Shown here piece after piece: positions 48,967 to 64,000 of a DNA stretch of 64,000 bases (positions are counted from its first letter, which is position 1; each line of letters starts with the position of its first letter). Origin of the DNA: an uncultured delta proteobacterium (GTDB lineage: Bacteria > Myxococcota_A > Polyangia > Polyangiales > Polyangiaceae); NCBI GenBank assembly GCA_963716725.1, contig CAVQUB010000007.1, positions 96,001 through 160,000 on the forward strand. The letters are read 5' to 3'. The notes under the pieces were generated by a model. It had not been told where the DNA came from. It saw only the letters and a list, made by a program, of their open reading frames with translations, and did not search any database. Both the position numbers and the translations under genes were made by a program.

Positions 48967-49268
48967 GGCCGGACCATAAGCACCGGTCCGAGGGACCTGC
49001 AATTCTCTCCGCCCGAGCGCGAGCCCCGGGGCCGGACCGCGCAGAAATCCGCAGGTTTCCCCGGCTCGTGAGCCACCCCGCGAGGCGGTGCTTGCTGGCC
49101 CGTAGGGTGTTCGGTAGAAGGGTGGAACGCTATCAGGCTCGAACCCTTCGTTCTCCGGCGGTTTTCGTCGAAGCGCGGGGGGAACAACTGGGACGGCACT
49201 TAGCAAGCCGTTTCGGTGCCGCGTAGGCGGCGCTCGTGAGTGAGCACGAGCGGCTTGCGGAGGTTCGG

Positions 49269-49751: not shown

Positions 49752-49766
49752 GGAGAGGTCCGGGCG

Positions 49767-50354
49767 ATGAGCTTCATCAACTACATGGCCCGGGAGATCA
49801 ACTGCAAGATCGTCTACTACGGGCCCGGGCTCTGCGGGAAAACGACGAACCTGCAGTACATCTACGAGCGCACGAACCCCGACGCGAAGGGCAAGATGAT
49901 CAGCCTCGCGACGGAGACGGAGCGCACGCTCTTCTTCGACTTCCTGCCGCTCTCGCTCGGTGAGATCCGCGGATTCAAGACGCGCTTCCACCTCTACACG
50001 GTGCCCGGTCAGGTGTTCTACGACGCCAGCCGCAAGCTCATCCTCAAGGGTGTGGACGGCGTCGTCTTCGTGGCCGACTCGCAGATCGAGCGCCTCGAAG
50101 CCAACCAAGAGAGTTTGGACAACCTTCGCACCAACCTGGCGGAGCAGGGCTACTCTCTCGAGAAGCTCCCCTACGTGATCCAGTACAACAAGCGCGATCT
50201 GCCCAACGCCGTCGAAGTCGCCGAGCTTCGCGAGCTTCTGAATCCCACCGGCGTGCCCGACTACGAGGCCAACGCGCGCTCCGGCATGGGCGTGTTCGAC
50301 ACGCTGAAGGCCGTGAGCAAGCTGGTGCTCACCGAGCTGAAGCGCGGCGGCTGA
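49767..50354 (+). CDS. mglA: Small GTPase MglA
   Basis: [29 protein letters not shown]. Confidence 0.98.
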
Positions 50355-50382
50355 GCGCGTTGTTGCGGCGCGCACGCGGCAG

Positions 50383-50862
50383 TCAGACGACGAGCGTCGA
50401 CTGCAGCTGACGATGTGCCTCGAAGAGTACGATCGCCAAGGCCACCGCGAGGTTCAGGCTTCGAGTCTGACCTAGAGACGGCACCGTCACGATCGCCGTC
50501 GCGGCGTCGAGCTCGGCCTGAGGGAGGCCTTGGCTTTCGGAGCCAAAGAGGAGCAGATCCGTCGGCGCGAATCGAAACCGCGTGAGGTCGGTCGCCTGGG
50601 ATTGTGCCGCGGTTGCGATGACTCGGCCAGGGTGGCTTCGGAGGACTCGCTCAGGTTCCTCGACCCGTATCCAGTGGATCTTGCTGAACGCTCCGGCCGA
50701 AACGACGCGCATCTCCCGCGACCGGGACTTGCCATAGCGATCGCGAATCAGCCGCCGTGGATCGAAGACATGGCACTCGGACAGGCCGAAGACTTCGAGG
50801 GTTCGAGCGAGCACGCAGAGATTGCGAAAGTCCTGCGGTGCGTACAGAAACACGTTCGCCAT
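50383..50862 (-). CDS. SpoU/TrmH-family RNA methyltransferase
   Basis: LLFGSESQGL, SLNLAVALAIVLFE SPOUT motifs. Confidence 0.85.
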   Translation of the reverse strand: MANVFLYAPQDFRNLCVLARTLEVFGLSECHVFDPRRLIRDRYGKSRSREMRVVSAGAFSKIHWIRVEEPERVLRSHPGRVIATAAQSQATDLTRFRFAPTDLLLFGSESQGLPQAELDAATAIVTVPSLGQTRSLNLAVALAIVLFEAHRQLQSTLVV

Positions 50863-50870
50863 CTGTCTCG

Positions 50871-51251
50871 TCAGCCCACCCTTCTCGGCAGCCGCCCGAC
50901 CTCCTTCACTCGAAACTTCACGATCTTCGCGATCAACGCCAGGGGCATCGGCTCATCGAGGGGGAACTGAACGGAGCCTTTCGCGCTCTTGTATCCGGCC
51001 AGCTCCTTCTTGAATGCGGCGATACCGGACGGAGAGGGATAGAACCCGATGTGCCTCGCGAAGGCGGCGAAGTGCACCAGATTCTCGTGGAGGACGAAGG
51101 TCGGAATGCCGTACTTGATGGTCTCGGTGGCGGCGGGCGCCGACTTCTGCACGGTCGCCCTCAGCTGCTCCAGCAACGCTCGCACCTCCGGCCGACAGCC
51201 TGCGATGTAGGCGTCGACATTCTTGGGCTTTGACTTCGCGCCGACGCTCAC
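50871..51251 (-). CDS. DUF1801/YdhG-like protein
   Basis: VDAYIA, ETIKYGIPTF, HIGFYP, KGSVQFP. Confidence 0.85.
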   Translation of the reverse strand: MSVGAKSKPKNVDAYIAGCRPEVRALLEQLRATVQKSAPAATETIKYGIPTFVLHENLVHFAAFARHIGFYPSPSGIAAFKKELAGYKSAKGSVQFPLDEPMPLALIAKIVKFRVKEVGRLPRRVG

Positions 51252-51361
51252 TTGCCCGCAGCATAGCGTAGAAGCGCAAGACCTCCGCCGAAAGGCCGCG
51301 CTCACCCGGGCGGCGCGCCTTCGACCTGGTCATCAGGCTTCGTCGACCGCAGTCCACACCG

Positions 51362-52045
51362 CTACCATGGCGCCGAAGCGCCCGGCATCGCGAAGTAGCC
51401 GGCTTCGATCGCCATCACGGCGAGCAGCCACAGCGTCGCTTCTTCGTCGAGCGCTGGCGCGAGCCACGCGCAGAACGGCTCTGGCACCGTCGGCAACGCT
51501 GACTCGGGCTCGGTGGCGTGTCTGACGCGGGCCAGGTCGCGACCGCGCAAGAACAGGCGCCCCCCGTCGGAGCCTCTTTGGTAGGCGCCCAGTTCGCCAC
51601 CGTGCGGATCGGAGATGCGGCCCGTCGCGAGGCCGAGCACGCCAAACTCGGATCGATTCACCCAGATCCGACAGTCCGACGGCGTGAAGCTGATGTCGAG
51701 CCGAGTCCAGTGGGTGAGCACGGTGATCTCGCCGCCCTTGCTGCGCTTCTCTGCGCTGAAGCGCGCCAGCTCGCCGCGAGTGCGACAGGAGTGCATGCCA
51801 GCCGTCATGCGGAACACCCGTCTCCCGCCCATCGGCCGGTAGAAGTGCCAGCTGCCGACGCTGTTTCGGGAGACCTCGGCGAGGGTCTGGCTGGTCCAGT
51901 CTTCGAGCCCGTCCGCGCTGCCCGAGGCGATCTGGGCAGCCGTCACGTCGGACTCCTGTTTGTTGAAGAGCACGCCGAGCATCGCGGCAAGGACCACGAC
52001 GAACGCGCCACAGCCGATGAGCCCGCCGATCAGTCCGAGGATCAA
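51362..52045 (-). CDS. Hypothetical membrane-anchored protein
   Basis: Open frame with N-terminal TM helix; TTG start inferred. Confidence 0.55.
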   Translation of the reverse strand: MILGLIGGLIGCGAFVVVLAAMLGVLFNKQESDVTAAQIASGSADGLEDWTSQTLAEVSRNSVGSWHFYRPMGGRRVFRMTAGMHSCRTRGELARFSAEKRSKGGEITVLTHWTRLDISFTPSDCRIWVNRSEFGVLGLATGRISDPHGGELGAYQRGSDGGRLFLRGRDLARVRHATEPESALPTVPEPFCAWLAPALDEEATLWLLAVMAIEAGYFAMPGASAPW

Positions 52046-52207
52046 CGGCTCCGCCTTCCTGTCGCGACTTGACGCGCGTCTTTGGTGCAACGAAGAGCCG
52101 TCGCCTTGGCGGCGTCGGTCCCGATTTGGGCTGCGAGCGGACGGAGCCTCACGGTCTCTGTCTAGCGGAGTCCGCTCCGGTTGCCAAAGGCCAGGCTCCA
52201 GACCGTC

Positions 52208-52290
52208 GCACAACAACCTGGCGTTCACCCGCGAACGCCGCGCATCATCGTAACGGACGGCGTGGCGCTTTTTGAGGCCGCTCGCTCGCC
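52208..52290 (-). repeat. Half attC (family A; only the L'/R' arm remains)
   Basis: gcacaac-aacctggc-gttcacccgcgaacgccg matches family A; partner arm absent. Confidence 0.75.
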
Positions 52291-52401
52291 CGAGCCGTCA
52301 TCGCGCCAGAAGTCGCGGCGTTGTTCCTCGGTGTGCCGCGACCGATAGCTGGCGCGGAAGCTAGCCTCAGCCCTTCGACGCCAACGCTGCGGCCGGCAGT
52401 G

Positions 52402-53250
52402 TCACCGCTCGAGCGGCCGGTACAGTGGGCTGTTGCACCTGGGGTCGAGCCCGAGATCGCGCACCCGGCAACGCCCGCCAACGCAGGCCGCCTGCAACGA
52501 ATCATCAATGCCCTCGGAGAGGCAATCTGGACAGCCGCCCTTGGTCTTGCAACGAGCATTCTTGCGGCGATCAACGGCGATCACCTGGTCTCCGGACGCG
52601 ACGCCGCAGTAGCAGCAGTCCTCGGCCATCAGCGCGCAGTGGGCATCTGCCGAGCAACTGGCCAGCGCTGCCGGCATCACGCGGCGCAAGAGCTTTGGGG
52701 GTCGGACTCTTGGGCACGACGACTTGGTCGTGACGTCGCAACGCGTCTCGACCACGACGCAGCGACGGTTCACACATTCGGCGCTCAAGCCCGACGGAAA
52801 TCCCGAGGCGCACGCCGGGCAGTTGGAGGTGCAGAGCACGTCGTCACCGGAGTCGACGGCCCGCACCTGCTGTGCGCTCAGGGCACCGCAAGGCGGGCAA
52901 CACGCGGCGGGGCGCAGCAGGCATTGATCGTTGCGCGTACAGGAGGCGCGGCGCGCGCTCTGTCCGAGCACGCTGCGCTTGCACTCCGGTCGCGCGGCAT
53001 CGACACCAGCAGCGCGACCGGAATCAGCGTCAGGGACCGAGGTGGAATCGCGCGACGCATCGGGACTGGAAGCGTCGACCGCATCCTGCGCATCCGCCTC
53101 CGGAGCCCAGGTGGCGCTGGCGCCCGGTCCGTCAGCCGCCTCGCCGCCGGCATCCCCAGGCATCAGGGGTTGCGGGGCTTTGGGCGCCCGACAATGCGTG
53201 AGCGCGAGGGCCACGCCGAAGCTCGTCAGGGCGAAGCGAGTGCGACTCAT
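52402..53250 (-). CDS. Cys-rich lipoprotein with two tandem ~10-Cys domains
   Basis: Lipobox-like LTHC, D-A rich linker, duplicated SC..C..CC..C..AV..C..CP.C..AEC/AAC..RC pattern. Confidence 0.7.
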   Translation of the reverse strand: MSRTRFALTSFGVALALTHCRAPKAPQPLMPGDAGGEAADGPGASATWAPEADAQDAVDASSPDASRDSTSVPDADSGRAAGVDAARPECKRSVLGQSARRASCTRNDQCLLRPAACCPPCGALSAQQVRAVDSGDDVLCTSNCPACASGFPSGLSAECVNRRCVVVETRCDVTTKSSCPRVRPPKLLRRVMPAALASCSADAHCALMAEDCCYCGVASGDQVIAVDRRKNARCKTKGGCPDCLSEGIDDSLQAACVGGRCRVRDLGLDPRCNSPLYRPLER

Positions 53251-53449
53251 CGGCCTCGCCTCGAGCTTACGCCAAAGCCGCGACTTTGCGGCGCGAGAGC
53301 TGAGGAGGCAGGCTACGCTCTTTCGCGTTCGTGGATGGACAGATCGTGTTGGCGATCACTGGGACGTGTGGCATCCCGCCGATCGCCGCGAGCCCGGGCG
53401 AGTTCAAGTCGTTCAAAGAGCTGGTCGTCCAGAACTGGGTGCGTGGACG

Positions 53450-53560
53450 CTAGGAGGTCTGGATCAAACGATCGTGGAGCCAGAACACCTCCGTCGGCGA
53501 GAGGTGCCTCATGCCAGGGGTCGATAGAGCTCTGCGTTCCTGCGGAGCATCTGTTCGGCG
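53450..53560 (-). pseudogene. Remnant of antitoxin/Doc (Fic-family) toxin junction
   Basis: ...AEQMLRRNAELYRPLA* overlaps (ATGA) MRHLSPTEVFWLHDRLIQTS*; resembles antitoxin C-terminus and Doc N-terminus. Confidence 0.6.
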
Positions 53561-53683
53561 CGCGTCGGGCGCGCCGACCGGTGCGATCCGGGCGGGGGAT
53601 CACGAGCGGAAGCGAGGCCCTACAACCGCTGTGTGGCACGGCGGTCGGGGCGCCGGGCCCCCGCTGTAACGTGGCGGAGTCTG

Positions 53684-53849
53684 TATCAACGATCCGGCGT
53701 TCACCCGCGAACGCCGAGACCAAGAGATACCAGAGAGCGCGGCGCTGCACACGCGGGCGAGTGCCGCAGACAGGGCGAGCGCCCGCGACGCGCGACGGAC
53801 GGAGAAGTCGGCAAGGCCGGCGTTCGTCGGGTGGAACGGCCAGTTATGC
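53684..53849 (-). repeat. attC10 (family A, 166 bp)
   Basis: Minus strand GCATAAC-TGGCC-GTTCCACCCGACGAACGCCG...CGGCGTTCGCGGGTGAAC-GCCGGATC-GTTGATA. Confidence 0.9.
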
Positions 53850-53886
53850 GGCTGTCGGCAGGGCGCAATCGAGCTATGCTTCAGGC

Positions 53887-54129
53887 ATGGCGCAGTCACA
53901 CCCCGACGAGTTGCTTTGGCGGCGCGCGTTGGCGCTTCCACCGGACAAGCGCCTGGCGCTTGCTACCGAGCTGCTGAACAGTGTGGAAGAGCGCCACGAC
54001 GAACGCTGGGAGCGCGAGTGGCTCGCGGAATTGGACCGACGAAGCGCAGCGATCGACCGCGGGGAAGACAAGCTCGAGGACTGGGAGACGGTGAAGGCCA
54101 GGTTGCGGGCCGAGCTGCGCGCAAGGTGA
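53887..54129 (+). CDS. Addiction-module antitoxin (ParE-associated family)
   Basis: ALALPPDKRLALATELLNSV...WLAELDRRSAAIDRGE..DWETVKARL. Confidence 0.85.
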   Translation: MAQSHPDELLWRRALALPPDKRLALATELLNSVEERHDERWEREWLAELDRRSAAIDRGEDKLEDWETVKARLRAELRAR

Positions 54130-54265
54130 AGACGCGGTTTTCCGACGGCTCCACAGGTTCCCGTTCGTCATCCACTTTCGTCTCGGCGAAAACGAGGTCT
54201 TCGTCCTGGCCGTTGCCCACGGGAAGCGCAAACCAGGCTACTGGGTCTCGCGCGACGAACCTTAG
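54126..54265 (+). pseudogene. ParE/RelE toxin, internally deleted and frameshifted
   Basis: GTGA-coupled MKTRF start joined out of frame to RRLHRFPFVIHFRLGENEVFVLAVAHGKRKPGYW*. Confidence 0.85.
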
Positions 54266-54268
54266 GCC

Positions 54269-54423
54269 GAATAGCGATTGAGGCGTTCAGCAGCGAACGC
54301 CAGAAACAACATCACCAGATTCTACCCCGCGCGAGACCCTGGGGAACAGCCGAAGGGGTGCAGGGCGCCACGACATCACCAGTCAGAAAGCCAGCGCTCG
54401 TCTGCTGCAACCTCCTGTTAGGC
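54269..54423 (-). repeat. attC9 (family B, 155 bp; R' GTT mutated to GCT)
   Basis: GCCTAAC-AGGAG-GTTGCAGCAGACGAGCGCTGG...TGGCGTTCGCTGCTGAAC-GCCTCAATC-GCTATTC. Confidence 0.85.
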
Positions 54424-54436
54424 GGTCCGTCGAGAA

Positions 54437-54820
54437 CTAGCGCCACTCGCCCACCATGCCCGCCTTTCGATAGTCCAGTCCGCGCGAGCGTACCGCCAAT
54501 CCATTCGCATACGGCACGGCCCACGCGAACGCCGCGGCCTCGCGCCCTGTACGCAGACGGACCACGCCGTCCGCTCCGAGTTTGCGGGCATGGTCGGCCA
54601 ACTCGTCGAGAAGAGGATCCATCGAGCCGTACGTCCCACGCTTCAGTTTGATTTCACCGAGGTACTCCAACGGAGCGCCCGGCGGCGGCACATCCTTCGT
54701 GAAGAACACGGGACCTGCGTGCGGCGGGTATCGAGACTCGGGCATCTCGGTGCTTGTGCCGCACGCTGCAACGCTGCCGAGGACGGCGGCGAGAACAAGC
54801 GGGGACACACACCTAGCCAT
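54437..54820 (-). CDS. Cassette lipoprotein, YbjQ/heavy-metal-binding-like fold
   Basis: Lipobox VAAC; YLGEI...LADHARKLGADGVV...GLAVR pattern. Confidence 0.7.
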   Translation of the reverse strand: MARCVSPLVLAAVLGSVAACGTSTEMPESRYPPHAGPVFFTKDVPPPGAPLEYLGEIKLKRGTYGSMDPLLDELADHARKLGADGVVRLRTGREAAAFAWAVPYANGLAVRSRGLDYRKAGMVGEWR

Positions 54821-54830
54821 TATGCAATCC

Positions 54831-54996
54831 GCCTAACGAAACGGCGTTCACCCGCGAACGCCGAGACTCAAGATAACAGACGGCACAGCGCTGCACACGC
54901 GGGCGAGTGCCGCATCAGAGTGGTCATCCGCGGCCGCAGAATGGACGGTGAAACTCGGCATGGCCGGCGTTCGGCGGGTGCAACGGCCAGATATGC
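54831..54996 (-). repeat. attC8 (family A, 166 bp; R'' AAC mutated to ATC)
   Basis: GCATATC-TGGCC-GTTGCACCCGCCGAACGCCG...GGGTGAAC-GCCGTTTC-GTTAGGC; close to attC2. Confidence 0.85.
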
Positions 54997-55005
54997 GGTG
55001 CCTGG

Positions 55006-55314
55006 TCACCTGACCCCTTCGAGTCGATCAATCCAGTACAGCGGCGCCTGGTTGCCCAAGAACGCGACGACCACTACCCGGGGATCGGTGATGTAGATGA
55101 TCGACACGGGGAACGTGCGCAGAACGACGTGCCGAACGCCCGGAGGGACGCCCTCGAGCACCCACGGAGCGCCGAGGTGGGGAGATTCGTCGATCAGCCC
55201 GAAGATTTCCTGGGCTTCGTCGACGAAGCGGGAACCGTAGCCGGACCGCTTCTCTTCGTACCAGAGCGCGTTTGCGGCGAGTTCACGCGGGGCAGCGTCC
55301 AGAACCTCAGGCAC
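55006..55314 (-). CDS. ParE/RelE-family toxin
   Basis: WYEEKRSGYGSRF...SPHLG...RHVVLRTFPVSIIY...VVVVAF...YW; overlaps antitoxin stop. Confidence 0.85.
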   Translation of the reverse strand: MPEVLDAAPRELAANALWYEEKRSGYGSRFVDEAQEIFGLIDESPHLGAPWVLEGVPPGVRHVVLRTFPVSIIYITDPRVVVVAFLGNQAPLYWIDRLEGVR

Positions 55315-55546
55315 GGCGAGAAGCCACTGCGGCTCGAGCCCTGGACAGCGCGTCTTGCGCAGAAACGGTCTTCGCCGTGCCGTCGCGAAGGCGCTCCACT
55401 CTGCGCGCGATCTCACCAACCCAAGCGTCGTGCGCAGATGGCGCCGGCGTTGGAGTCAAGCTCTCCGCCAGCCGGAGCGCGAGCTGAGCGCGCTCGTCGT
55501 CGGGAAGCTCAAGTGCCTCTGCAAGAATGAGGTCGATGCGAGACAT
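55307..55546 (-). CDS. Addiction-module antitoxin (ParE-associated family)
   Basis: ALELPDDERAQLALRLAESL...AWVGEIARRVERLRDG. Confidence 0.88.
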   Translation of the reverse strand: MSRIDLILAEALELPDDERAQLALRLAESLTPTPAPSAHDAWVGEIARRVERLRDGTAKTVSAQDALSRARAAVASRRA

Positions 55547-55629
55547 CGCGCCAAGCGTACCACGTCGTGTGGGGGGGCGAATCGGGCGTCGACGGTCCAG
55601 TTGAAAGCGCGCGCCATCTCCTCGCGGCC

Positions 55630-55713
55630 GGATAACGTATCGGCGTTCTGCGGCGAATGCCAGACCGAGCGCAGCGAGGGAGGGCAGTCGTCCGCAGCAA
55701 CGCCTTGTTAGCC
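55630..55713 (-). repeat. attC7 (short type, 84 bp)
   Basis: GGCTAAC-AAGGC-GTTGCTGCGGACGACTGCC...GGCATTCGCCGCAGAAC-GCCGATAC-GTTATCC; vapC stop lies in R''. Confidence 0.88.
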
Positions 55714-56109
55714 AGCCTCAGCAGACCAGTTCACGACCCTGAGCCCCTTCACCTTGGAGAAGTGCTTGAGGTTGTTGCTTACCAGCGTGAAGTTCAGCGC
55801 GAGCGCATGGGACGCGATCAACGTGTCCAGGGTGCCAATGGGTGTGCCCTTCGTCTCGAGGGCTGCCTGAACGCGACCGAAGGCGGCGGCAGCGGCGTCG
55901 TCAAAGGGCACGACAGCAACCGTGCGACTGAACGCGTCGATGATGCCGTGGAGTTTCCGAGAGCGCCGACGCTCGGCCCCGAATCGCAGTTCCGCCAGGG
56001 TGAGTGCGCTTATGGACACCTCCGACGGCTGATGGTCGGTGAGCCGGGCGGCAGCGGGGCCTTGGCCGCGCAGGATGTAGCTGACGGTGTCGGTATCGAG
56101 GAGAAACAT
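55708..56109 (-). CDS. vapC: VapC PIN-domain toxin
   Basis: LLDTDTVSY, LAELRFG, IGTLDTLIASHA, LVSNNLKHF. Confidence 0.93.
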   Translation of the reverse strand: MFLLDTDTVSYILRGQGPAAARLTDHQPSEVSISALTLAELRFGAERRRSRKLHGIIDAFSRTVAVVPFDDAAAAAFGRVQAALETKGTPIGTLDTLIASHALALNFTLVSNNLKHFSKVKGLRVVNWSAEAG

Positions 56110-56113
56110 GGCC

Positions 56114-56353
56114 CTAATCCCCGAATGGATCGCGCGGAGCGGAGGCGTCACGCGCTGGCCGAGGAATCTCGCCGGACCACGCCCCAATGCACGCCAAGAA
56201 ATCCTCCGGCCACGCGTCCACGGGCTCGAGGATGATGCGACGTCCCTCGCGGCGAACGACCACTTCCGCCTGGGTGTCGGGGAAGCGGCAGTCCTTCGGA
56301 AGTCGGACGGCCTGGCTTCCACCATTCCTGAAAAGCTTGGCTCGAGCGCTCAC
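56114..56353 (-). CDS. vapB: VapB (AbrB/MazE-type) antitoxin
   Basis: AKLFRNGGSQAVRLPKDCRF. Confidence 0.93.
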   Translation of the reverse strand: MSARAKLFRNGGSQAVRLPKDCRFPDTQAEVVVRREGRRIILEPVDAWPEDFLACIGAWSGEIPRPARDASAPRDPFGD

Positions 56354-56359
56354 TTGGGA

Positions 56360-56389
56360 AAGTATAGACGCATGTCTATACTTCGTCAA
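56360..56389 (-). promoter_or_regulatory. Sigma70-type promoter of vapBC with overlapping operator palindrome
   Basis: TTGACG-N17-TATACT on the minus strand; AAGTATAGAC-GCAT-GTCTATACTT perfect 10-bp inverted repeat 56360-56383. Confidence 0.85.
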
Positions 56390-56419
56390 GCAGCGCCGGC
56401 GCGTGTGTTTCTGCGGTCT

Positions 56420-56459
56420 GGCTAGCCTACCGACGTTCAGCAGCGACGTCTTGTTAGCC
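56420..56459 (-). repeat. attC6, collapsed 40-bp remnant (L'' arm and loop deleted, R' GCT)
   Basis: GGCTAAC-AAGAC-GTCGCTGCTGAAC-GTCGGTAG-GCTAGCC. Confidence 0.75.
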
Positions 56460-57038
56460 GGCCGTCGGAGGTCGAGCGGTCGCCAGTATGTCTTGAGCGG
56501 TCATCGAGGATGCTTCGTTCGGGTGCAGGGCGGTAAGGCGCCAGTCCGCCGCGGCCTGGTCGTCGATCAAGATGTCGGGCTTCGCCAAGAAGTCGACGAA
56601 GCAATCCGCAATGCCCAGCTCGACTGCGGATCGGTGGGCGTATGGCGCGCCTCCGACGCTCCAGCAATAGAGAACGGCGTTGGCCGCGTGAAGGTCACGA
56701 ACACGTTGTACGACGCTGCTCATCGGGATGCGCTTCGAACCGAAGGAGCGAACGAGCGTGTCATCGACGTCGACGAAGATGATAGGCGTGTTGGGCGCGG
56801 TGCGGTCGCCAGGCGCCTGCTGCAGACGTTGTCTGGCAGCGTCGAGCATCTCCGGATAGTTGGTGCTGAGGGGCTCCACCAGCGTGGTCTCGAGCTGGCA
56901 CTCGATCTGCCAGAGCACGTGCTGCTCAGCCGAATCGAGCACCCGGACGGCGCCGCCTGAACCGGCTCGGTGGAGCATCTCGAACAGAAGGAGAGCCGCG
57001 TCTGGCTCAAGTTCGAGCTTGTGGCTTGGCGGGCTCAT
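56454..57038 (-). CDS. Two-domain cassette protein: small helical domain + HAD-superfamily phosphatase-like domain
   Basis: IIFVDVDDTL (HAD motif I), WS, KPD..IDD; stop in R'' box. Confidence 0.75.
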   Translation of the reverse strand: MSPPSHKLELEPDAALLLFEMLHRAGSGGAVRVLDSAEQHVLWQIECQLETTLVEPLSTNYPEMLDAARQRLQQAPGDRTAPNTPIIFVDVDDTLVRSFGSKRIPMSSVVQRVRDLHAANAVLYCWSVGGAPYAHRSAVELGIADCFVDFLAKPDILIDDQAAADWRLTALHPNEASSMTAQDILATARPPTAG

Positions 57039-57047
57039 CTCGGGTCC

Positions 57048-57212
57048 GCCCAACGAGACACACGTTCACCCGCGAACGCGCGAGGTGATCGTAACAGAGC
57101 GCGGGGCATTTTCGAGGCCGGCGCGTGCCGTTGAAAATTGGGCGCCGGCCGCCGCGGGACGGACGGTGAAGTCGGCAAGGCGCGCGTTCGGCGGGTGCAA
57201 CGTCCGTTATGC
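57048..57212 (-). repeat. attC5 (family A, 165 bp)
   Basis: GCATAAC-GGAC-GTTGCACCCGCCGAACGCGCG...CGCGCGTTCGCGGGTGAAC-GTGTGTCTC-GTTGGGC. Confidence 0.88.
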
Positions 57213-57560
57213 GGCATCTCGCGGCGTCACCGCCCCGGGCGCCCGCACGAACATCACCAACGCGACCATGCTGGGGACGAAGAAGCCCAGCACTCCGAGT
57301 GCGGTGAAATTCATGGCCTCGGCGATGCCCTCGCCGAGCAGTCGTGCCTTTTGTGACGGATCCACAGCCTCACCACCGACGGCAACAGAAGCCTTGAACG
57401 CGCCGAGCGCAATACCGGTCGCAGGTGCAAGGAAGAGGCACAGGAGGCTGAGAAGAAGGACGCGGCGAAGGGTCTTGCGGGGCTGGGACGACCAGCGCGC
57501 AACTATGGACGCGGCGACGAACCCAAAGCTGGTGAGGCCGATCAGAACCCACCAGTGCAC
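57207..57560 (-). CDS. Small 3-TM protein with MotA/TolQ/ExbB-like C-terminal hairpin
   Basis: GGGGAG RBS + GTG; AVGGEAVDPSQKARLLGEGIAEAMNFTALG; stop in R''. Confidence 0.7.
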   Translation of the reverse strand: MHWWVLIGLTSFGFVAASIVARWSSQPRKTLRRVLLLSLLCLFLAPATGIALGAFKASVAVGGEAVDPSQKARLLGEGIAEAMNFTALGVLGFFVPSMVALVMFVRAPGAVTPRDAA

Positions 57561-57569
57561 GATCTCCCC

Positions 57570-57735
57570 TGCCAACGATCCGGCGTTCACCCGCGAACGC
57601 CGAGACCAAGAGATACCAGAGTGCGCGGCGCTGCACACGCGGGCGCGTACCGCTTGATGATGGGCACCGGCGCATTCGGCGAGGCGCCAAGGCAAGGCAC
57701 GACCGGCCTTCGGCGGGTTCATCGCCTTGTTAGCC
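57570..57735 (-). repeat. attC4 (family A, 166 bp)
   Basis: GGCTAAC-AAGGC-GATGAACCCGCCGAAGGCCG...CGGCGTTCGCGGGTGAAC-GCCGGATC-GTTGGCA. Confidence 0.85.
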
Positions 57736-57754
57736 AGGCCTCTGCCGCAGCGAC

Positions 57755-57783
57755 TTGACATAGTTATCGTTTCGGATAACTAT
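57755..57783 (+). promoter_or_regulatory. Promoter and operator of the toxin-first TA pair
   Basis: TTGACA at 57755-57760; ATAGTTATC-N6-GATAACTAT perfect inverted repeat 57760-57783; -10 element weak. Confidence 0.75.
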
Positions 57784-57789
57784 TGGCTT

Positions 57790-58128
57790 GTGAGTTTCGT
57801 CGTCCGCGAGTACGTCGATGAAAGCGGACGCATCCCCTTCCGGGATTGGCTAGGAGAGCTAGACACGTCGGTCCGCGCTCGCGTGCAGGCGAGAGTTTTG
57901 CGATTTGAAACCGGCAACCTCGGCGACCACAAGGAGGTCGGAGAAGGGGTCTGGGAGGCGCGGCTAGACTTCGGTCCCGGGTACCGCTTGTACTTCGGGA
58001 GAAGCGGCCGCGAGGTCGTTCTGCTCTTGCTGGGTGGCGACAAGACGTCTCAAAGGAAGGACATCCGGCGAGCTCGAGAGTTTTGGGCGACGTACGTGAA
58101 GGAACTGAAGCATGGCAAGACGCAGTAG
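57790..58128 (+). CDS. HigB-like RelE/ParE addiction-module killer protein
   Basis: GRIPFRDWL, GNLGDHKEVGEGVWEARLDFGPGYRLYF, LLLLGGDKTSQRKDI. Confidence 0.92.
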   Translation: MSFVVREYVDESGRIPFRDWLGELDTSVRARVQARVLRFETGNLGDHKEVGEGVWEARLDFGPGYRLYFGRSGREVVLLLLGGDKTSQRKDIRRAREFWATYVKELKHGKTQ

Positions 58129-58423
58129 AGACTGGAACGAAGGACTGGCCGAAGACCTTCAGGACCCGGAGTTCGCGCGACAGTTCTTGACGGCTGCCGT
58201 GGAAGACGGCGTGCCCCTGAAGATTGCTCTTGCGAAGGTCATTCGTGCCACAGGTGTGAAGGAGTTCGCGGAGAGCGTCGGGATGCTGAGCCCGAATGTG
58301 CTGAGGGCGATTGACCCGAAGCACAACCCAACGCAGGAAACACTCGAACGTCTACTGAAGCCATTCGGGCTTCGAATTGGCCTCGCCCAGATCAAGCCTA
58401 GGACGAAGGGTCGCGCGGCATAG
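58112..58423 (+). CDS. HTH antitoxin (HigA-like addiction-module antidote)
   Basis: LQDPEFARQFL, C-terminal HTH, NPTQETLERLLKPFGLRI; overlaps toxin. Confidence 0.88.
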   Translation: MARRSRDWNEGLAEDLQDPEFARQFLTAAVEDGVPLKIALAKVIRATGVKEFAESVGMLSPNVLRAIDPKHNPTQETLERLLKPFGLRIGLAQIKPRTKGRAA

Positions 58424-58437
58424 CGTCCGCCTCTCCA

Positions 58438-58600
58438 GCTCAACGATCCGGCGTTCACCCGCGAACGCCGGAGATCATCGTAGCAGACGGCGGGGCGCAT
58501 CAGAGCGGGCGCGTGCCGCAGACAGTGAAGGCGCCCGTGACGCGCGACGTGCGGTGAAACTCGCCTGGCCGGCGTTCGGCGGGCGGAACGTGAGTTATGA
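58438..58600 (-). repeat. attC3 (family A, 163 bp)
   Basis: TCATAAC-TCAC-GTTCCGCCCGCCGAACGCCGG...CCGGCGTTCGCGGGTGAAC-GCCGGATC-GTTGAGC. Confidence 0.87.
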
Positions 58601-58622
58601 GGCGGGCTTGCTCACTGGCTTG

Positions 58623-58734
58623 TCACTCAACCGCGGCGTCGTCCGTGGACGAATCGCCCTCAGAACCGTCGTCGAGCGACGAGTCAAGCGCAGCGTCCGG
58701 AAGCTGTGTGTCCGTAGGGCTGTCGGGCTTGGTA
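58623..58734 (-). pseudogene. 3' remnant of a cassette gene (Asp/Ser/Ala-rich tail) cut by the IS
   Basis: TKPDSPTDTQLPDAALDSSLDDGSEGDSSTDDAAVE* directly after the IS end. Confidence 0.55.
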
Positions 58735-58765
58735 TGAAGTTCCCCCGCTTCCGTGGACAGCATGA

Positions 58766-59646
58766 TTATGCCGCAGCCTTCACTGTTCGTGAACGCAATT
58801 CGAACTCGATCGGGTTGAGGTAGCCGAGGTGAGAGTGGCGCCGCTCGATGTTGTAGAAGTTCTCGATGTAGTCGCCGATGGAGGTCTCGGCCTGGACGGT
58901 ATCGACGTACAGCTCATGGTCTACGAGTTCGGCGCGCAAGGTGGCGAAGAAGCTCTCCGCGACTGCGTTGTCCCAGCAGTCGCCCTTGCGGCTCATGCTC
59001 GCCACCAGACCGTGCGCGGCCAGCTCCGCTCGGTATGCGTCGCTGGCGTAGGGGCTTCCGCGATCGGAGTGGTGCACGAGGCCTGCGGCAGGGCGACGCG
59101 ACAGAAGGCCCTTTCGGAGCGCTTCGAGAGCCAGCAAGCTGTGTCGTTGTTCTGGCTCGCGGCCCACGCAACAACCCGACGGGAGATAGAGGTCGAGCAT
59201 CACGGCAAGAAACAGCCAGCCCTCGAGAGTCCAGATCGCAGTCACGTCGGTGACCCAGACGCGATCGGGAGCGGCGACTTCGAACTTCCGAGCGAGCACG
59301 TTGGGCGCGATCGGGTTCGAGTGTTTCGAATCGGTCGTCTTCCTGAAGCGGCGCTTCCGCCGCGCTTCGAGGCCGTTTTCCTGCATGAGCCGCTCCACTC
59401 GCTTCTTGCCGACGCGGATCCCCTGGGCTCGCAGTTCCGCATGCACGCGCGGGCTACCGTAGGTGCTTGCGGCTGCGCGTGTGGACCGCAGCGACCTGGA
59501 CCGCGAGCTGTGCGTCGGCGCGTAACACGAGGCGCCTGGGGCCGCTTACGCCATGCATGGAACCCGCTGCAAGAGACCTCGAGAACGCGGCACAGCATCG
59601 TGATTGGGTAGAAGGCCTTCTCGGCGAGGATGAACACGAACTTCAT
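58766..59646 (-). pseudogene. IS3 OrfB DDE transposase with several indels
   Basis: WVTDVT, HHSDRGSPY, CWDNAVAESFF; frame breaks near 59520, 59465 and a pair at about 59185/59140. Confidence 0.9.
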
Positions 59647-59954
59647 GTGCTCTCCTTCGCGAAGAAGGCCGCCGCTTTTTTCAGGATTTCGCGCTCCATT
59701 TGCAGGCGCTTGTTGTCCCGCCGCAGTTGCGCGAGTTCCGCCCGCTCGTCACTCGTGAGCGCACCTGGCGGTCCGTTGCCGGCGTCGATGTCGGCCCGTT
59801 TCACCCACTCGCGCAAGGCCGTCTCGGTCAGGTCCAGGTCCCCGGCCACCTGCGTGACGGTCCGATCTCCGACCTTGCAGAGCCGCACTGCCCCGGCCTT
59901 GAACTCGGGGGTGAATGCTCGTCGCTTCCTACGCTGCTTCTTTCGCTTGTCCAT
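59643..59954 (-). CDS. IS3 OrfA (HTH + leucine zipper)
   Basis: RRAFTPEFKAGAVRL...EREILKKAAAFFAKE. Confidence 0.93.
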   Translation of the reverse strand: MDKRKKQRRKRRAFTPEFKAGAVRLCKVGDRTVTQVAGDLDLTETALREWVKRADIDAGNGPPGALTSDERAELAQLRRDNKRLQMEREILKKAAAFFAKEST

Positions 59955-60011
59955 GGATCACTCCAGGCGCATTGTCGCGCGAGTTGGGGTGTCCACGAAA
60001 CCGGGGGAAGA

Positions 60012-60413
60012 TCACTCGGGCGCTCCCCCGTTCGCCAGACGGCGATTCTCCTCATCCAGGTACTCATCGAAGTGCTCAAGAGAGTTGCGCACTTTGGAGT
60101 TGAGGAGCTCATCCATTGGCACGCCGTCGAGAATGGAACGCAAGGTCTTGGCGCGCCGTTGCCGGAAGCTGTGCGAGACAGCGGTTTCCGATTTGCGGCG
60201 CTGCGAGGGTTCGACGAGCTTTCTCAAATTCGCGCTCGCGATTAGCGCCACTGAGATATTCGTATGGAGTTTCAAGGATACTTGGAGCGTGAATCCCGTG
60301 TCGGGAACGGCGGCTTCGTTGAAGACGGCGTCACATGCGTCGACGATCGCATGAGCGAGCCACACGATCTCGTGAAGGCAAACACCGAAGAGTGGCGTGT
60401 TGGTGATGTCCAC
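60012..60413 (-). pseudogene. Cassette gene with R-X4-H (HEPN-like) motif, truncated by the IS
   Basis: VRNSLEHFDEYLD; its stop TGA is the first three bases of the IS. Confidence 0.65.
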
Positions 60414-60430
60414 GATTCGATCCTGCGTCG

Positions 60431-60595
60431 GTCTAACGCTCTGGCGTTCACCCGCGAACGCCGAGACTCAAGGTAGCAGACGGCACGGCGCTGCACACGC
60501 GGGCGAGTGCCGCATCAGAGTGGTCGTCCGCGGTTGCGGAACGGACGGTGAAGACCGGAAGACCGGCGGTCGGCGGGTGAAACGCCTTGTTATGC
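60431..60595 (-). repeat. attC2 (family A, 165 bp)
   Basis: GCATAAC-AAGGC-GTTTCACCCGCCGACCGCCG...CGGCGTTCGCGGGTGAAC-GCCAGAGC-GTTAGAC. Confidence 0.9.
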
Positions 60596-60900
60596 CGTGA
60601 CAGAATCACGGTGATTCTCGGGTCGGAGACTTTCGGCGCCGCCCGACGCGTCGACGCCGTGGTCTTGGATCTTCTCGACATCTGCGACCGCAACTGTCGC
60701 TGCTGCTTCTGCGGGCACAGTCGGCAAGACATCGGTGGTCTTGGTGCAGCGCTGTCGTTCAACCGCCGGAACTTTTTCCCGCCGCGACGACGCTCGGGGC
60801 TCGCCTCGCGCGACCGGATGCGTCGGAGACTTTCGGCGCTGCCCACGGCAAGACCGTGAAGTCTCGCCAGCGCTGCCCGCTGCATAAGAAATGAACAGCG
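60596..60900. other. Cassette 2 cargo: repeat- and hairpin-rich, probably non-coding
   Basis: 23-bp direct repeat at 60622 and 60822, several inverted repeats, no recognisable protein. Confidence 0.55.
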
Positions 60901-61084
60901 GCATAACGATTGAGGCGTTCAGCAGCGAACGCCAGGAACAACACTACCCAACAATACCACGCCGACAGGCGCGGGGGTGGCGCCGAGGTTCGCAAGAACC
61001 GAGGCGCTAAGCCCCGCGCGCAGGGCGCCACGACATCAGCCAGTCGGAAAGCCAGCGATCGTCTGCTGCAACGTCCTGTTAGGC
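60901..61084 (-). repeat. attC1 (family B, 184 bp)
   Basis: GCCTAAC-AGGAC-GTTGCAGCAGACGATCGCTGG...CTGGCGTTCGCTGCTGAAC-GCCTCAATC-GTTATGC. Confidence 0.9.
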
Positions 61085-61495
61085 AGTACTCCATGAGTCG
61101 AGATCTGTGACCGGACTGGGAAGTCGGCCTTCGAGCCATTTCGCACAATCAGCCGGCGTGAACTCGGTGTCGGTTGACTCGATGACCCACGAAAGGAACT
61201 CAACGCCGCCGTTCATGTAGGGTGGTGGGGACACCGGCATGAACACTGTGGGAAGGCGCTCGTCAATCGACATGTAGTTGAGCACGTGGCCCAGTTCCTG
61301 GACAACTCGCCACGCGAGGCCGTGTGTCGTGTCGAGGGAGAACTTCACCCACCAGAGGCCACCATCAGATCCACACCCGATGGACCGACGCCCTGCCGGA
61401 AGCTCGATTGCAGGCAGCTGCTCAAGAAAACGCAGGAGCGGCTCGAACGATTCTTCCTCCCCCAAATGACACCACCAAATCTGCCTAACCTCCAT
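61079..61495 (-). CDS. Cassette 1 hypothetical protein (ATG supplied by the attI region; also in frame with intI)
   Basis: WWVKFSLD...[14 protein letters not shown]...[14 protein letters not shown] in R'' of attC1. Confidence 0.7.
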
Positions 61496-61520
61496 TCTAC
61501 CTCGGACGCTTCCGCGAAGC
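61483..61520 (-). other. Putative attI (core GTTAGGC at 61489-61483)
   Basis: GTTAGGCAG is the exact complement of the CTGCCTAAC end of cassette 1; no attC hairpin upstream. Confidence 0.75.
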
Positions 61521-61645
61521 ACCGGGGCTCGGCTCGTGCCGTCCCCCATGATCTTCAGCGCTTGCGCCCGACGTGGCGCGTCCGGGGTCGCGTTATGCGG
61601 TTCCGCATAGCCTGATAGGTGGTGCCCGAGGGGGAGGTTGATTGC

Positions 61646-62219
61646 GAGCTGGTCGAGGGGGCTCCGAACGCCATGTCCGACGCGGTTCAGGACGTGCGTG
61701 TAGATCATGGTCGTGGTGACGTCCGCGTGGCCGAGCAGCTCTTGGATGGTACGGATGTCGTACCCGGCTTCGAGCAAGTGGGTGGCGAACGAGTGCCGGA
61801 GCGCGTGGCAGCTGGCCGGCTTGGGGAGGCCCGGGCCGGCTTCCAGTGCGGCCCGCCGTACCGCGCGTTGCAGCACAGTTTGGTGGGTGTGGTGGCGCCG
61901 GCGCTCGCCGGTGACGCGATCCCTGTAGTGACGTTCCGCGGGGAACACCCACTGCCACGCCCACTCACGCGGGGCATCCGGATACTTGCGCGCGAGCGCG
62001 TGAGGCAGCTCGACGCTGCCCACGCCGTTCCGCAAGTCGATGTCGTGCTGGGATCGGACGGTTGCGAGGTGACGCATCAGGGGCTCGAGCATCGAGGCGG
62101 GGAGTGGGGTCACGCGGTCCTTCTTCCCCTTCCCGCAGCGGACCGTGATCTCGTGGCGATGCAGGTCGATGTCCTCGACGCGCAAGCTCGCGCACTCCAT
62201 CAGGCGCAAGCCTCCGCAG
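61646..62219 (-). pseudogene. intI: Integron integrase, catalytic half only (N-terminal domain missing, no stop codon)
   Basis: [14 protein letters not shown], IntI-specific [54 protein letters not shown]. Confidence 0.93.
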
Positions 62220-62288
62220 GATGTCGGAGACGTGCCCGGCGAAAGCAATCTTCGTCGCCGGCGATCGCCACCCTGCCGCGCCCGCGGC

Positions 62289-63710
62289 TCAGGCGGCCTT
62301 CGCACCGGGAGCGTTGCGGAGCTCACCCAGGATGGCGTCAATGGTCTTCTTGGCGTCGCCGAAGAGCATCTGGGTGTGCTCTTTGAAGAAGAGCGGGTTC
62401 TCGACGCCCGCGTAGCCGCTGGCCATGCTCCGCTTCATCACCACGCAGGCCTTGGCCTTCCACACCTGGAGCACGGGCATGCCGTAGATGGGGCTCGACC
62501 GATCGTCGAGTGCGCCCGGGTTCACGATGTCGTTGGCTCCGATCACCAGCACCGCGTCGGTCTCGGGGAAGTCCTCGTTGATCTCGTCCATCTCGAGCAC
62601 GATGTCGTACGGGACCTTCGCTTCGGCCAAGAGCACGTTCATGTGGCCGGGAAGTCGGCCCGCGACCGGGTGAATCGCGAAGCGCACCTTCACGCCGCGC
62701 TCGCGCAAGAGGGCCGCCACCTCCCACAGCGGGTACTGCGCTTGGGCAACGGCCATGCCGTAGCCCGGCACGACCACCACGCTCTTGGCGTTGGCGAGCA
62801 GCGCTGCCGTGTCGGTCGCGGTGACGCTGACCACCTCGCCCTGGGGTTCGCCGGAGGTCTTGGCCGGGGCTGCGCCTTCTTCGGCGCCAAAGCCGCCGAA
62901 GATCACGCTGACGATGGATCGGTTCATCGCCTTGCACATGATGTAGCTGAGAATGGCGCCGCTCGATCCGACCAGCGCGCCAGTGATGATCAAGAGATCG
63001 TTGGCGAGCATGAAGCCCGCCGCGGCAGCCGCCCAGCCAGAGTAACTGTTGAGCATCGACACGACCACCGGCATGTCGGCGCCGCCGATGGCCATCACCA
63101 GGTGCACGCCGAGCACTCCGGCGATCGCCGTCATGATCAGCAGCGGCTGCAGGCCTCCGTGCTCCGGCGCCGAAAGGAACTGCGCTCCGAGCCAGAGGCA
63201 AGCCGCGACCATGGTGAGGTTCGCGAGGTGGCGTCCTGGGAGCAGCAGCGGCTTGCTGCGGATCAGACCTTGGAGCTTTCCGTAGGCGACGATTGAGCCG
63301 GTGAAGGTGATGGCGCCGATGAACACGCCGATGAACACCTCGATCTCGTGGATCACCGCCTCGGCGCCGCTCAGATCGGAGGGAGGCGCCAGGAAACTCG
63401 CGATGCCCACCAGCACCGCGGCCGCGCCCACGAAGCTGTGCAAGATGGCGACGAGCTGGGGCATGTTGGTCATGGCCACGCGCGCGGCGAGAAGCGCGCC
63501 GATCACTGCGCCGACGCCGATGGCGCCCGCCAAGACGGGGTAGCCGGTGACCGAGGGGTGCGCGGCGGTGGCGACCAGCGCGATGATCATGCCGACGATG
63601 CCGAAGACGTTGCCGCGTCCTGCGGATTGCTGCTTCGACAGCCCGCCGAGGCTCGAGATGAAGAGCACGCCGGCGACGAGGTACGCGATGTTCTGAAGGC
63701 TCTGCGGCAT
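62289..63710 (-). CDS. pntB: NAD(P) transhydrogenase subunit beta
   Basis: [48 protein letters not shown]. Confidence 0.98.
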
Positions 63711-63716
63711 GGTCGA

Positions 63717-64000
63717 TCACCTCTGGAACATGCGCAGCATGCGCTGCGTGACCAGGAAGCCTCCCGAGATATTGATGGTGGCGATCAGCACAGCGATGGC
63801 GCCGAGCGCTGTCACCGGGGCGGTGACGGGGCCGGAGACCTGAAGCATGCCGCCGATCAGGATGATGCCGCTGATGGCGTTGGTGACGCTCATCAGTGGC
63901 GTGTGCAGCGCGGGCGTGACGTTCCAGACCACCTGCCAACCGATGAAACAGGCCAGCACGAACACCGTGAAGTGCGCGAGGAAGCTGGGCGGTGCTACCA
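63717..64000 (-). CDS. pntA: NAD(P) transhydrogenase subunit alpha, membrane part (5' end outside window)
   Basis: [35 protein letters not shown]. Confidence 0.95.

Follow-up and report, generated by a model that had tools for sequence, protein, structure and literature searches.

Inverted-integrase integrons, of which Treponema denticola is the classic example, carry the integrase gene intI and the top strand of their attC sites on one and the same DNA strand, with the cassette array 3' of intI and the attachment site attI downstream of the integrase gene. To our knowledge, and with no search aimed at the question, the mode of cassette expression in this layout is not settled, and integrons outside the Proteobacteria are listed in surveys and rarely dissected. 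Here we focus on a stretch of 64,000 nucleotides (hereafter the window) from the genome of an uncultured delta proteobacterium of the family Polyangiaceae (GenBank assembly GCA_963716725.1, contig CAVQUB010000007.1, positions 96,001 to 160,000), in which an array of attC sites lies next to an intI remnant. The reading we prefer, to which we assign a probability of about 0.85, is that of a sedentary chromosomal inverted-integrase integron, located between pntB and mglBA, whose own integrase gene has been inactivated.

The inverted-integrase group is the third of three broad groups of integron integrases (Boucher et al., 2007, as cited in PMC3575428), and the inverted layout is a published type (PMC3575428; PMC13323075). 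A cluster of attC sites lacking an integron integrase is termed CALIN, and an intI pseudogene accompanied 15 of 279 such clusters (Cury et al., 2016, PMC4889954). The same study describes insertion sequences (IS) inside arrays as well as complete integrons co-occurring with CALIN, and it regards an integron as sedentary if it has more than 19 attC sites or is present in 100% of the genomes of a species. Toxin-antitoxin cassettes are enriched in sedentary integrons (PMC13108822). In addition, 192 complete integrons have been reported in 3,229 myxobacterial genomes (preprint 10.64898/2026.09.14.751636), attC sites in Myxococcota genomes are mentioned (PMC9668308), and a Myxococcota integron integrase has been reported (PMC12772301). 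The initial annotation of the window, made from the sequence alone, had proposed an integron with its array 3' of intI and in the same orientation. This layout holds, with intI, attI and array all on the minus strand, but the novelty attached to it was overstated in view of the published type and of the myxobacterial integrons already reported; a literature search, supplements aside, found no dissection of a myxobacterial integron.

The window belongs to contig C7 of its own assembly (7.9 Mb in 35 contigs, 84% complete, 3.9% contamination) and has a G+C content of 60-70%; coordinates are window positions unless another contig is named. The mglBA genes, a G+C content of 65-70% and a genome of around 8 Mb are compatible with a host in the Myxococcota. 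The gene that had been recognised on the minus strand by its IntI motifs is indeed derived from an integron integrase, and it is not intact. Residues 43-232 alone of an open frame of 420 codons (61079-62341) match the integron integrase family. The matching segment (61497-62217), which is the catalytic C-terminal half, covers positions 128-315 of the 315 positions of TIGR02249 at 279.1 bits (cut-off 265) and retains the IntI-specific segment. The segment stays far below the cut-offs of the XerC and XerD families, at around 100 bits where more than 329 are required (TIGR02224, 106.2 bits vs 335.15; TIGR02225, 98.6 bits vs 329.6). The start codon and about 147 N-terminal codons are gone, and a TIGR02249 search of the whole genome found the N-terminal half (profile positions 1-127) nowhere else on the window contig.

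How the gene was lost can be read from an intact paralogue on contig C8 of the same genome. The two loci align from 62217 to 61483 (C8 394735-394006) at 93.3% nucleotide identity over 736 nt, and the encoded remnant is 91% identical to the intact protein. The homology begins abruptly at 62217, in the codons for GGLRLMEC at about residue 148 of the C8 protein, and the frame upstream of this point is unrelated sequence that overlaps the end of pntB. Only about 70 nt separate the pntB stop from the remnant. Within them, 30 nt of the region upstream of the intI start have been kept (62234-62263, minus strand): 26 of 29 aligned positions, including an exact run of 17 nt, match C8 at about 395211-395240, upstream of the intact intI start. 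Because this upstream box is retained, the loss of about 475 nt is attributed to an internal deletion. At the other end, one nucleotide has been deleted near 61536 relative to C8; the TAG triplet at 61497-61499 is thus out of frame, and the frame bypasses it and continues into cassette 1. The window intI is therefore a 5'-deleted, frameshifted pseudogene without start codon, N-terminal domain or stop, and what the locus now amounts to is an attC cluster with the remnant of intI next to it, short of a complete integron. The view that the integron is complete and self-sufficient, its intI working, could be argued from the good preservation of the catalytic half, from its 91% protein identity to the C8 copy and from the 420-codon open frame. 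It is nevertheless highly improbable, given the missing profile positions, the abrupt end of homology at codon 148 or so, the unrelated upstream frame and the lost stop, all the more since a contig from another study has the same junction.

This independent contig also bears on whether the truncated intI, or a duplicated cassette, might be an artefact of metagenome assembly, created by mis-joined repeats or mixed strains. The fragmentation, incompleteness and contamination of the assembly speak for such an error, arrays of similar repeats are hard to assemble, and 22 of the best 80 related contigs break just downstream of intI. However, short contigs from the sequencing runs of three other studies reproduce the critical joints with no or one difference: one covers the deletion junction and the pntB stop (62183-62352, no differences), and others bridge attI and cassette 1 (61272-61815, one difference; 61359-61782, none). 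Furthermore, the two intI loci of the genome have different flanks, an RCC1-like gene at C8 and pntB in the window, and differ at 7% of positions. We consider an assembly artefact very unlikely.

The 3' end of the intI frame overlaps the region of attI (61483-61640, minus strand), with a crossover core GTTAGGC at 61483-61489. The homology between the window and C8 stops exactly at GTTAGGC, beyond which the first cassettes of the two arrays are unrelated. The TAG stop of the C8 intI precedes the core by 11 nt. The motif GGTAGAATG-N3-GTTA found here is also kept in G028, a genome of the same genus that is 98% complete and is the only congeneric genome compared, and the R'' of cassette 1 itself complements GTTAGGCAG at 9 of 9 positions. 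The end of homology at GTTAGGC, together with the GGTAGAATG-N3-GTTA arrangement, places attI at the 3' end of intI, with the array next on the same strand; the function of this site is predicted from the sequence. With intI and the attC top strand both on the minus strand and the array 3' of intI, the locus has the arrangement of the inverted-integrase integrons, and most of its cassette open reading frames (ORFs) are co-oriented with intI as well. This likeness to the classic group is one of layout. The locus differs from that group in that the intI frame of this genus extends across attI and ends only 11 nt short of the crossover.

The extended frame is a peculiarity in its own right. In this genus, IntI continues for about 50 residues past its usual end, through the attI region (window 61497-61640; C8 394023-394180; about 170-330 of the G028 intI locus L107), and the stop of the extended frame falls within the conserved GGTAGAATG, 11 nt before the crossover. 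Most relatives have their stop 1-15 residues after the SPL motif, and tails of at least 40 residues occur in 3 of the 61 other relatives listed. A hairpin, CTATGCGGAACCGCATAAC, built of R'-like and R''-like boxes, lies inside the IntI tail.

Downstream of attI, the sites partition 52208-61489 into about 11 cassettes. The ten attC hairpins previously counted on the strand of intI are about right; nine of the sites are complete, one has collapsed and one is a 3' remnant, and the minus strand is the top strand throughout. With coordinates running on the minus strand from the start of R'' to the end of R', the eight long complete sites are attC1 (61084-60901, 184 nt), attC2 (60595-60431), attC3 (58600-58438), attC4 (57735-57570), attC5 (57212-57048), attC8 (54996-54831), attC9 (54423-54269, with a degenerate R' GCTATTC) and attC10 (53849-53684). 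They measure 155-184 nt and have RYYYAAC and GTTRRRY ends. Six of them form a family, type A, with a mean pairwise identity of 70% (range 58-85%, 15 pairs), and the other two, attC1 and attC9, are 70% identical to each other (type B). The ninth complete site, attC7 (55713-55630), is short, with 84 nt. attC6 (56459-56420) has collapsed to 40 nt with R' GCTAGCC, and of attC11 (52271-52208) only the 3' arm and R' GTTGTGC are left, which match positions 106-167 only of an nhmmer profile. The type-A arms are each a small palindrome, GCGTTC-N6-GAACGC (for example 60444-60461 and 54844-54861); this gives the long stem a third GTT/AAC pair in addition to those of the R and L boxes, and the arms could self-fold.

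A structural signature of these repeats is an asymmetry between their arms. When each 5' arm is aligned with the reverse complement of its own 3' arm, two single-base insertions, six paired bases apart, appear in the minus-strand 5' arm of 9 of 9 complete sites, where a single extra base in the L'' arm had been noted before. The resulting pattern, GTT-N-hexamer-N-CGA against TCG-hexamer-AAC, was searched on both strands of the 7.9-Mb genome; with full complementarity of the hexamer it has 18 occurrences, all of them in three arrays and on one strand. The hexamers vary (CACCCG 15 times, CAGCAG twice, CTGCGG once), each with a perfectly compensated partner. In attC sites, the extra bases lie on the R''-L'' arm. 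By this rule, their position on the minus-strand 5' arm makes the minus strand the top strand. Extrahelical bases have a role in the choice of the attC strand (PMC12614218). All nine complete sites have R'' and R' cores, L'' and L' boxes and a variable centre, with the extra bases on the '' arm.

Searches that do not depend on this repeat family point in the same direction. A detector that combines R''/R' boxes with arm complementarity over 30 nt gives 34 matches in 7.9 Mb, of which 14 fall inside the three arrays, which together span about 47 kb. A looser box detector with 3,562 matches was dropped and arm alignment was used instead; a duplex-energy detector was dropped as unspecific. Rfam holds no attC family, and an Rfam scan of 48000-64000 with E up to 10 gave three chance-level matches only. 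We therefore relied on a proxy covariance model, R1, built from 28 sites downstream of intI in 7 other organisms; 95.1% of its cells are paired and 16 of 22 pairs have compensatory changes, a pairing that is partly by construction as the sites were chosen for arm complementarity. Searched against the whole window on both strands with filters off, R1 finds five array sites, every one on the minus strand: four have E values between 2.7e-8 and 0.027 and one has E 0.56. Its five matches outside the array are at E 0.13 or worse. The best match, attC7 (38 bits, E 2.7e-8), ends exactly as called, followed by attC9 (E 6e-4), attC8 (E 0.003) and attC5 (57201-57064, E 0.027). The same profile and covariance model, nhmmer and R1, detect no attC site in 50357-52207.

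The relation between sites and ORFs adds a further line of evidence. As previously noted, five ORFs stop in the TAA of R'' (ends 61079, 60590, 57207, 56454 and 55708), and the start of cassettes 1, 2 and 9 complements their own R'' at 9 of 9 positions. Taking four R/Y and two free positions as random, the odds of such a match are about 1/256, so that three among nine scorable cassettes are not due to chance. The repeats could otherwise be an unrelated family of palindromic intergenic elements, of the repetitive extragenic palindrome or miniature inverted-repeat transposable element kind, that happens to lie beside a recombinase fragment. The palindromic arms of the commonest type, the length of the repeats (about 165 nt) and their conserved centres are in keeping with that explanation. 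It is hardly credible in the face of R'' and R' ends that fit RYYYAAC and GTTRRRY, of two extra bases always on one arm and one strand, of ORFs that stop in R'', and of an intI paralogue homology that ends at the GTT core. Moreover, whole units have been exchanged at the cores, the clusters occur at three loci only, one of them beside an intact intI, and the same architecture is found downstream of IntI in other phyla. The repeats are real attC sites, well above chance.

The genome contains two further arrays. On C8, a full-length intI (394170-395114; TIGR02249 positions 1-315, 443.8 bits), whose protein has the Vibrio cholerae integron integrase 2a3v as its closest solved structure (end to end, E 3.8e-81; Xer about 1e-28), heads a second, complete integron (~385325-395177), in which an attI core GTTAGGC about 11 nt past the intI stop is followed by at least 10 type-A attC sites on the strand of intI. 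On C34, a third array (~138750-160197) has at least 8 attC sites and no intI match on the contig. Isolated attC-like sites are seen on C9 (~53908-54072 and ~44379-44469), C20 (10015-10179) and C33 (4166-4266).

A single indel distinguishes cassette 2 of the window (60906-60437, 470 nt) from the second cassette of the C8 array. The identity starts at GTTATGCC and ends at GCGTTAG, i.e. at the R' GTT cores; beyond these limits, neither the attC arm before the cassette nor the cassette after it is related between the two arrays. Since the intI/attI segments differ by 7% and the cassette is near-identical, it was moved or copied later than the divergence of the two platforms, as a core-bounded unit. 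This sharing is the best evidence of recent integrase action on the window array. The alternative is that the array is a fossil, in which no integrase mobilises cassettes and the shared cassette stems from an old duplication or gene conversion between paralogous arrays. Several signs of decay would fit: the complementarity between cassette start and R'' is degraded in six of the nine scorable cassettes, attC6 has collapsed, half of attC11 is gone, the R' of attC9 is degenerate, an IS disrupts cassette 3 with no target duplication, and one cassette has been kept since the split from G028 at 85% identity, about that of the flanks. However, the cassette is near-identical where the adjoining intI/attI segments reach only 93%. 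Its identity breaks off at the crossover cores and what lies on either side is unrelated, a hallmark of site-specific exchange and not of segmental duplication; moreover, an intact integrase is present in the genome. We regard a fossil array as unlikely, while giving it more weight than the other rival explanations. That the sole intact IntI, that of C8, services the C8, pntB and C34 arrays together is a doubtful proposition, to be entertained only tentatively.

The location of the integron was compared with that in G028. There, on contig C12, about 520 nt separate pntB (90.8% protein identity) from a full-length intI, which is followed by attI, and 171 nt further on the contig comes to its end; the gap between pntB and intI (about 1300-1800 of the intI locus L107) consists largely of tandem repeats of about 66-70 nt that the window is without. 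On the other side, homology of the mglBA flank (84%, on another contig) ends at window 50356, with four type-A attC sites within 3.4 kb. The proposal of a sedentary site between mglBA and pntAB is borne out by this full-length intI with attI after pntB and by the attC sites beside mglBA. The interval between mglA and pntB, which had been put forward for comparison in related genomes, shares a single whole cassette with G028: cassette 8 (window 55105-55637, G028 C217 3162-3693, 85%), the eighth in the window array and the last in G028. The other G028 matches of 50355-62292 are to attC sites, IS pieces and the intI remnant (74%), and include short matches of about 60-130 nt at 73-88% (53326-53454, 53566-53624 and 57295-57406). 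The site at pntB is thus fixed and the cassette content turns over.

In these respects, the locus resembles the Vibrio cholerae superintegron type, with which it has in common a fixed site across the genus, a homogeneous family of long, array-specific attC sites, content turnover, a majority of cassettes without known function and several toxin-antitoxin cassettes, two of which are on the opposite strand in the window. It differs in that the array is small (about 11 cassettes) and inverted, the integrase is inactivated and the host is not a gammaproteobacterium. With 11 sites, the array stays under the size rule of more than 19 for sedentary integrons; in the single congeneric genome, this chromosomal site is occupied as well, and the homogeneous attC family and the toxin-antitoxin cassettes are those of a sedentary integron. 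As it stands today, with at least two attC sites, no functional intI nearby and a C-terminal IntI remnant within 10 kb, the locus is a CALIN with an intI pseudogene. Like known CALIN, it has a complete integron elsewhere in the genome and an IS inside the array; unlike them, it keeps attI, its deletion can be reconstructed from a paralogue with 93% identity, and its ortholog in a sister species is intact. Class 1 integrons share the integrase family (51.6% identity to IntI1 over 82% of the protein) and the box logic of attC (R'', L'', L', R', with extra bases on the '' arm). In contrast to the window, they have an intI divergent from the array (as in locus L121), attC sites of 60-110 nt, mobility on transposons and plasmids, and resistance cassettes, none of which is seen here.

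From these observations, we propose the following course of events. Originally, the minus strand would have carried intI, an attI (core GTTAGGC) sharing sequence with the 3' end of the intI frame, and behind it the cassettes, each closed by an attC. An internal deletion of about 475 nt took away the start codon of intI together with the DNA-binding domain at its N-terminus, and a deletion of 1 nt then eliminated the stop, leaving attI, about 11 cassettes and the intI remnant. The C8 integrase would excise and insert window cassettes in trans, now or until recently, its presumed substrates being attI and the folded bottom (plus) strand of each attC, and the three toxin-antitoxin cassettes may help to keep the array where it is. 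Since most of the intI promoter region is lost and the pntB stop is only about 70 nt away, any transcription of the first cassettes is expected to come from read-through of pntAB or from promoters within cassettes.

Several results weigh against this scenario or limit its reach. The start of the other six scorable cassettes complements R'' at only 5-7 of 9 positions. R1, which penalises the 165-nt sites for their long centres, recovers no more than 4 of the 10 two-armed sites at an E of up to 0.027. The folding energy of a long site is little better than expected (z -1.94, with 4 of 200 shuffles as good); that of the short site is z -3.29, and folding energy alone is weak evidence for attC. 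The transfer of cassette 2 could predate the loss of the window intI, or could reflect homologous exchange via similar attC arms. A scan of 60800-62500 that covered one promoter type only, sigma-70-like, found none. The counts of arrays and integrases are a minimum, owing to the 84% completeness of an assembly in 35 contigs. Finally, the detector finds none of the six attC sites of a textbook class 1 integron at its working threshold of 12, and one at 9; because it is blind to short sites, the upstream and downstream counts given below for relatives hold for long-armed sites only. A first class 1 control locus was set aside as too rearranged.

If the inactivated-integron reading is correct, the two species form a natural series within one genus, with an intact integron at a fixed site in one and a reconstructable integrase deletion at that site in the other, complemented by an intact paralogue in the same genome and one cassette exchanged at crossover cores. 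The origin of integrase-less attC clusters, and whether such clusters stay in play through an integrase encoded elsewhere, would become testable in a non-model host. The doubtful further reading in which the C8 IntI services several arrays extends to expression: with attI inside the 3' end of the intI frame, first-position cassettes would be transcribed by read-through from upstream. Cassette expression would then be coupled to integrase induction in an intact copy and, in the window copy, to the pntAB operon, which is co-oriented and begins its approach some 70 nt away; the latter would amount to a domestication of the proximal cassettes.

The locus also provides a data point on arrays downstream of intI among the soil-phylum relatives of the window integrase. 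Relatives were taken as the best 80 IntI loci in a species-level genome collection, 55-69% identical, from Acidobacteriota, Gemmatimonadota, Eisenbacteria, Rokubacteria, Planctomycetota, 'delta proteobacteria' and others. In these 80 loci, 48 long-armed attC sites were found downstream of intI and 3 upstream, at 25 and 3 loci with at least one site, respectively, in 301 kb of downstream and 524 kb of upstream sequence; sites within one array are not independent, and contigs end within 500 nt of intI on the downstream side in 22 cases and on the upstream side in 5. One example is plasmid 1 of Gemmatirosa kalamazoonensis (IntI 60% identical), with 7 sites, all downstream. The label 'myxobacterial-type' given to the integron is accurate in one sense only: the ten host-family IntIs form one clade in a quick tree, with a support of 98 in the Shimodaira-Hasegawa-like approximate likelihood ratio test (SH-aLRT), while the inverted layout is common to the closest relatives in many other phyla. 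The clade also took in a misplaced Xer outgroup row; the tree (79 rows) is effectively unrooted, both of its Xer outgroups being misplaced on branch lengths of 10, and 17 rows had been dropped (16 for an internal stop in the match, L108 for a stop and a short match). IntI matches with an E of at most 1e-40 occur in 17 of 60 other genomes sampled from the host family.

In the same tree, IntI1 groups (SH-aLRT 98) with integrases of Povalibacter, Pyrinomonadaceae, a 'delta proteobacterium' and two Verrucomicrobia, and this group sits inside relatives mostly with downstream arrays. Lowering the detector threshold at six loci of the IntI1 subclade gave nothing usable on the side of their arrays.

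The cassettes themselves, all delimited on the minus strand, carry few recognisable genes. Toxin-antitoxin modules are present in three of them. Cassette 4 (57576-58443, attC4) has on the plus strand a RelE/ParE-family toxin within 57661-58128 (TIGR02683, 107.2 bits, cut-off 62.85; Pfam Gp49) and an antidote at 58112-58423 (TIGR02684, 34.7 bits, below cut-off). Cassettes 6 and 7 (55636-57053) contain an ORF at 56454-57053, attC6, vapB and vapC, and attC7. Both genes lie on the minus strand in cassette 7: vapB at 56114-56389 (MazE-type, 24.1 bits; NF040493, 58.9 bits vs a cut-off of 60) and vapC at 55708-56118 (PIN, 51.1 bits). A palindrome at 56353-56390, with a 17-nt inverted repeat and a 4-nt spacer at the 5' end of the vapB frame (start 56389), looks like a candidate autoregulatory operator. 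Cassette 10 (53690-54274, attC10) has on the plus strand a remnant of such a module, with an Unstab_antitox antitoxin at about 53935-54093 (PF09720, 38.6 bits) and a C-terminal ParE fragment at 54095-54265 (PF05016, 18.2 bits, below cut-off).

Cassette 1 (60907-61488, 582 nt) has an ORF ending at 61079 without a family match, followed by attC1, and cassette 2 (60437-60906) ends in attC2. Cassette 3 (58444-60436) comprises an ORF at 60012-60413, an IS insertion and attC3. Its IS3-family element (58736-60014, minus strand) encodes orfA (59643-59954) and orfB (rve, 58766-59545), identified by the Pfam families HTH_Tnp_1 and rve, and has TG...CA ends with inverted repeats; no matching 3-nt target duplication was seen at its ends. 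A full copy is found on C11 (98.2%) and a partial one inside the C8 array. The start of cassette 3 matches its R'' at 5 of 9 positions, a mismatch that suggests a deletion adjacent to the IS, and the cassette is probably a chimera. The remaining cassettes are cassette 5 (57054-57575; ORF 57207-57761 stopping in R'', attC5), cassette 8 (54837-55635; ORF 55006-55419, attC8), cassette 9 (54275-54836; ORF 54437-54820, attC9) and the last one, cassette 11 (52208-53689), with attC11 and a Cys-rich ORF of 282 residues (52402-53250) that has a lipoprotein-like N-terminus and no family match. At the thresholds used, the remaining cassette ORFs have no Pfam, NCBIfam or PADLOC family bar a sub-threshold DUF705 match; PADLOC returned nothing for 16 cassette ORFs. 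No drug-resistance cassettes were seen.

A few joints between distant window positions were also observed in sequencing runs. Run X1 has a joint from 60908 to 61491 (28 letters on one side, depth 3.5) that leads from a C8-type attI directly to cassette 2 and skips exactly one cassette length (582 nt); if real, this weak signal would make the first cassette polymorphic in that population. Joints from 58479 to 60473 (X5) and from 58487 to 60488 (X7) connect attC3 to attC2 in register, and those from 53802 to 58560 and from 53807 to 54961 (X6) lie inside attC sites; none of these joints, that of X1 included, is relied on. As the genome has more than 30 similar attC copies, the joints of X1, X5, X6 and X7 may all stem from other copies or strains.

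On the intI side of the integron, the conserved pntB gene for the beta subunit of NAD(P) transhydrogenase (62289-63710, minus strand; Pfam PNTB, 652.7 bits; NF006974, 693 bits) aligns with contig C12 of G028 at 85% nucleotide identity up to 62293. On the other side, the stretch between the last attC and mglA (50357-52207, minus strand) holds, by Pfam, a SpoU-type methylase gene (50383-50862) and a DUF1801 gene (50871-51305), and in addition an ORF of 288 residues (51362-52228) without a family match. The three are co-oriented with no attC between them and have no counterpart at the G028 locus; no orthologs of the 288-residue ORF were found in G028, G058 and G038, and for the SpoU gene, which has no ortholog in G028, only weak paralogues were found. 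The ORFs at 50383-52228 may be decayed cassettes.

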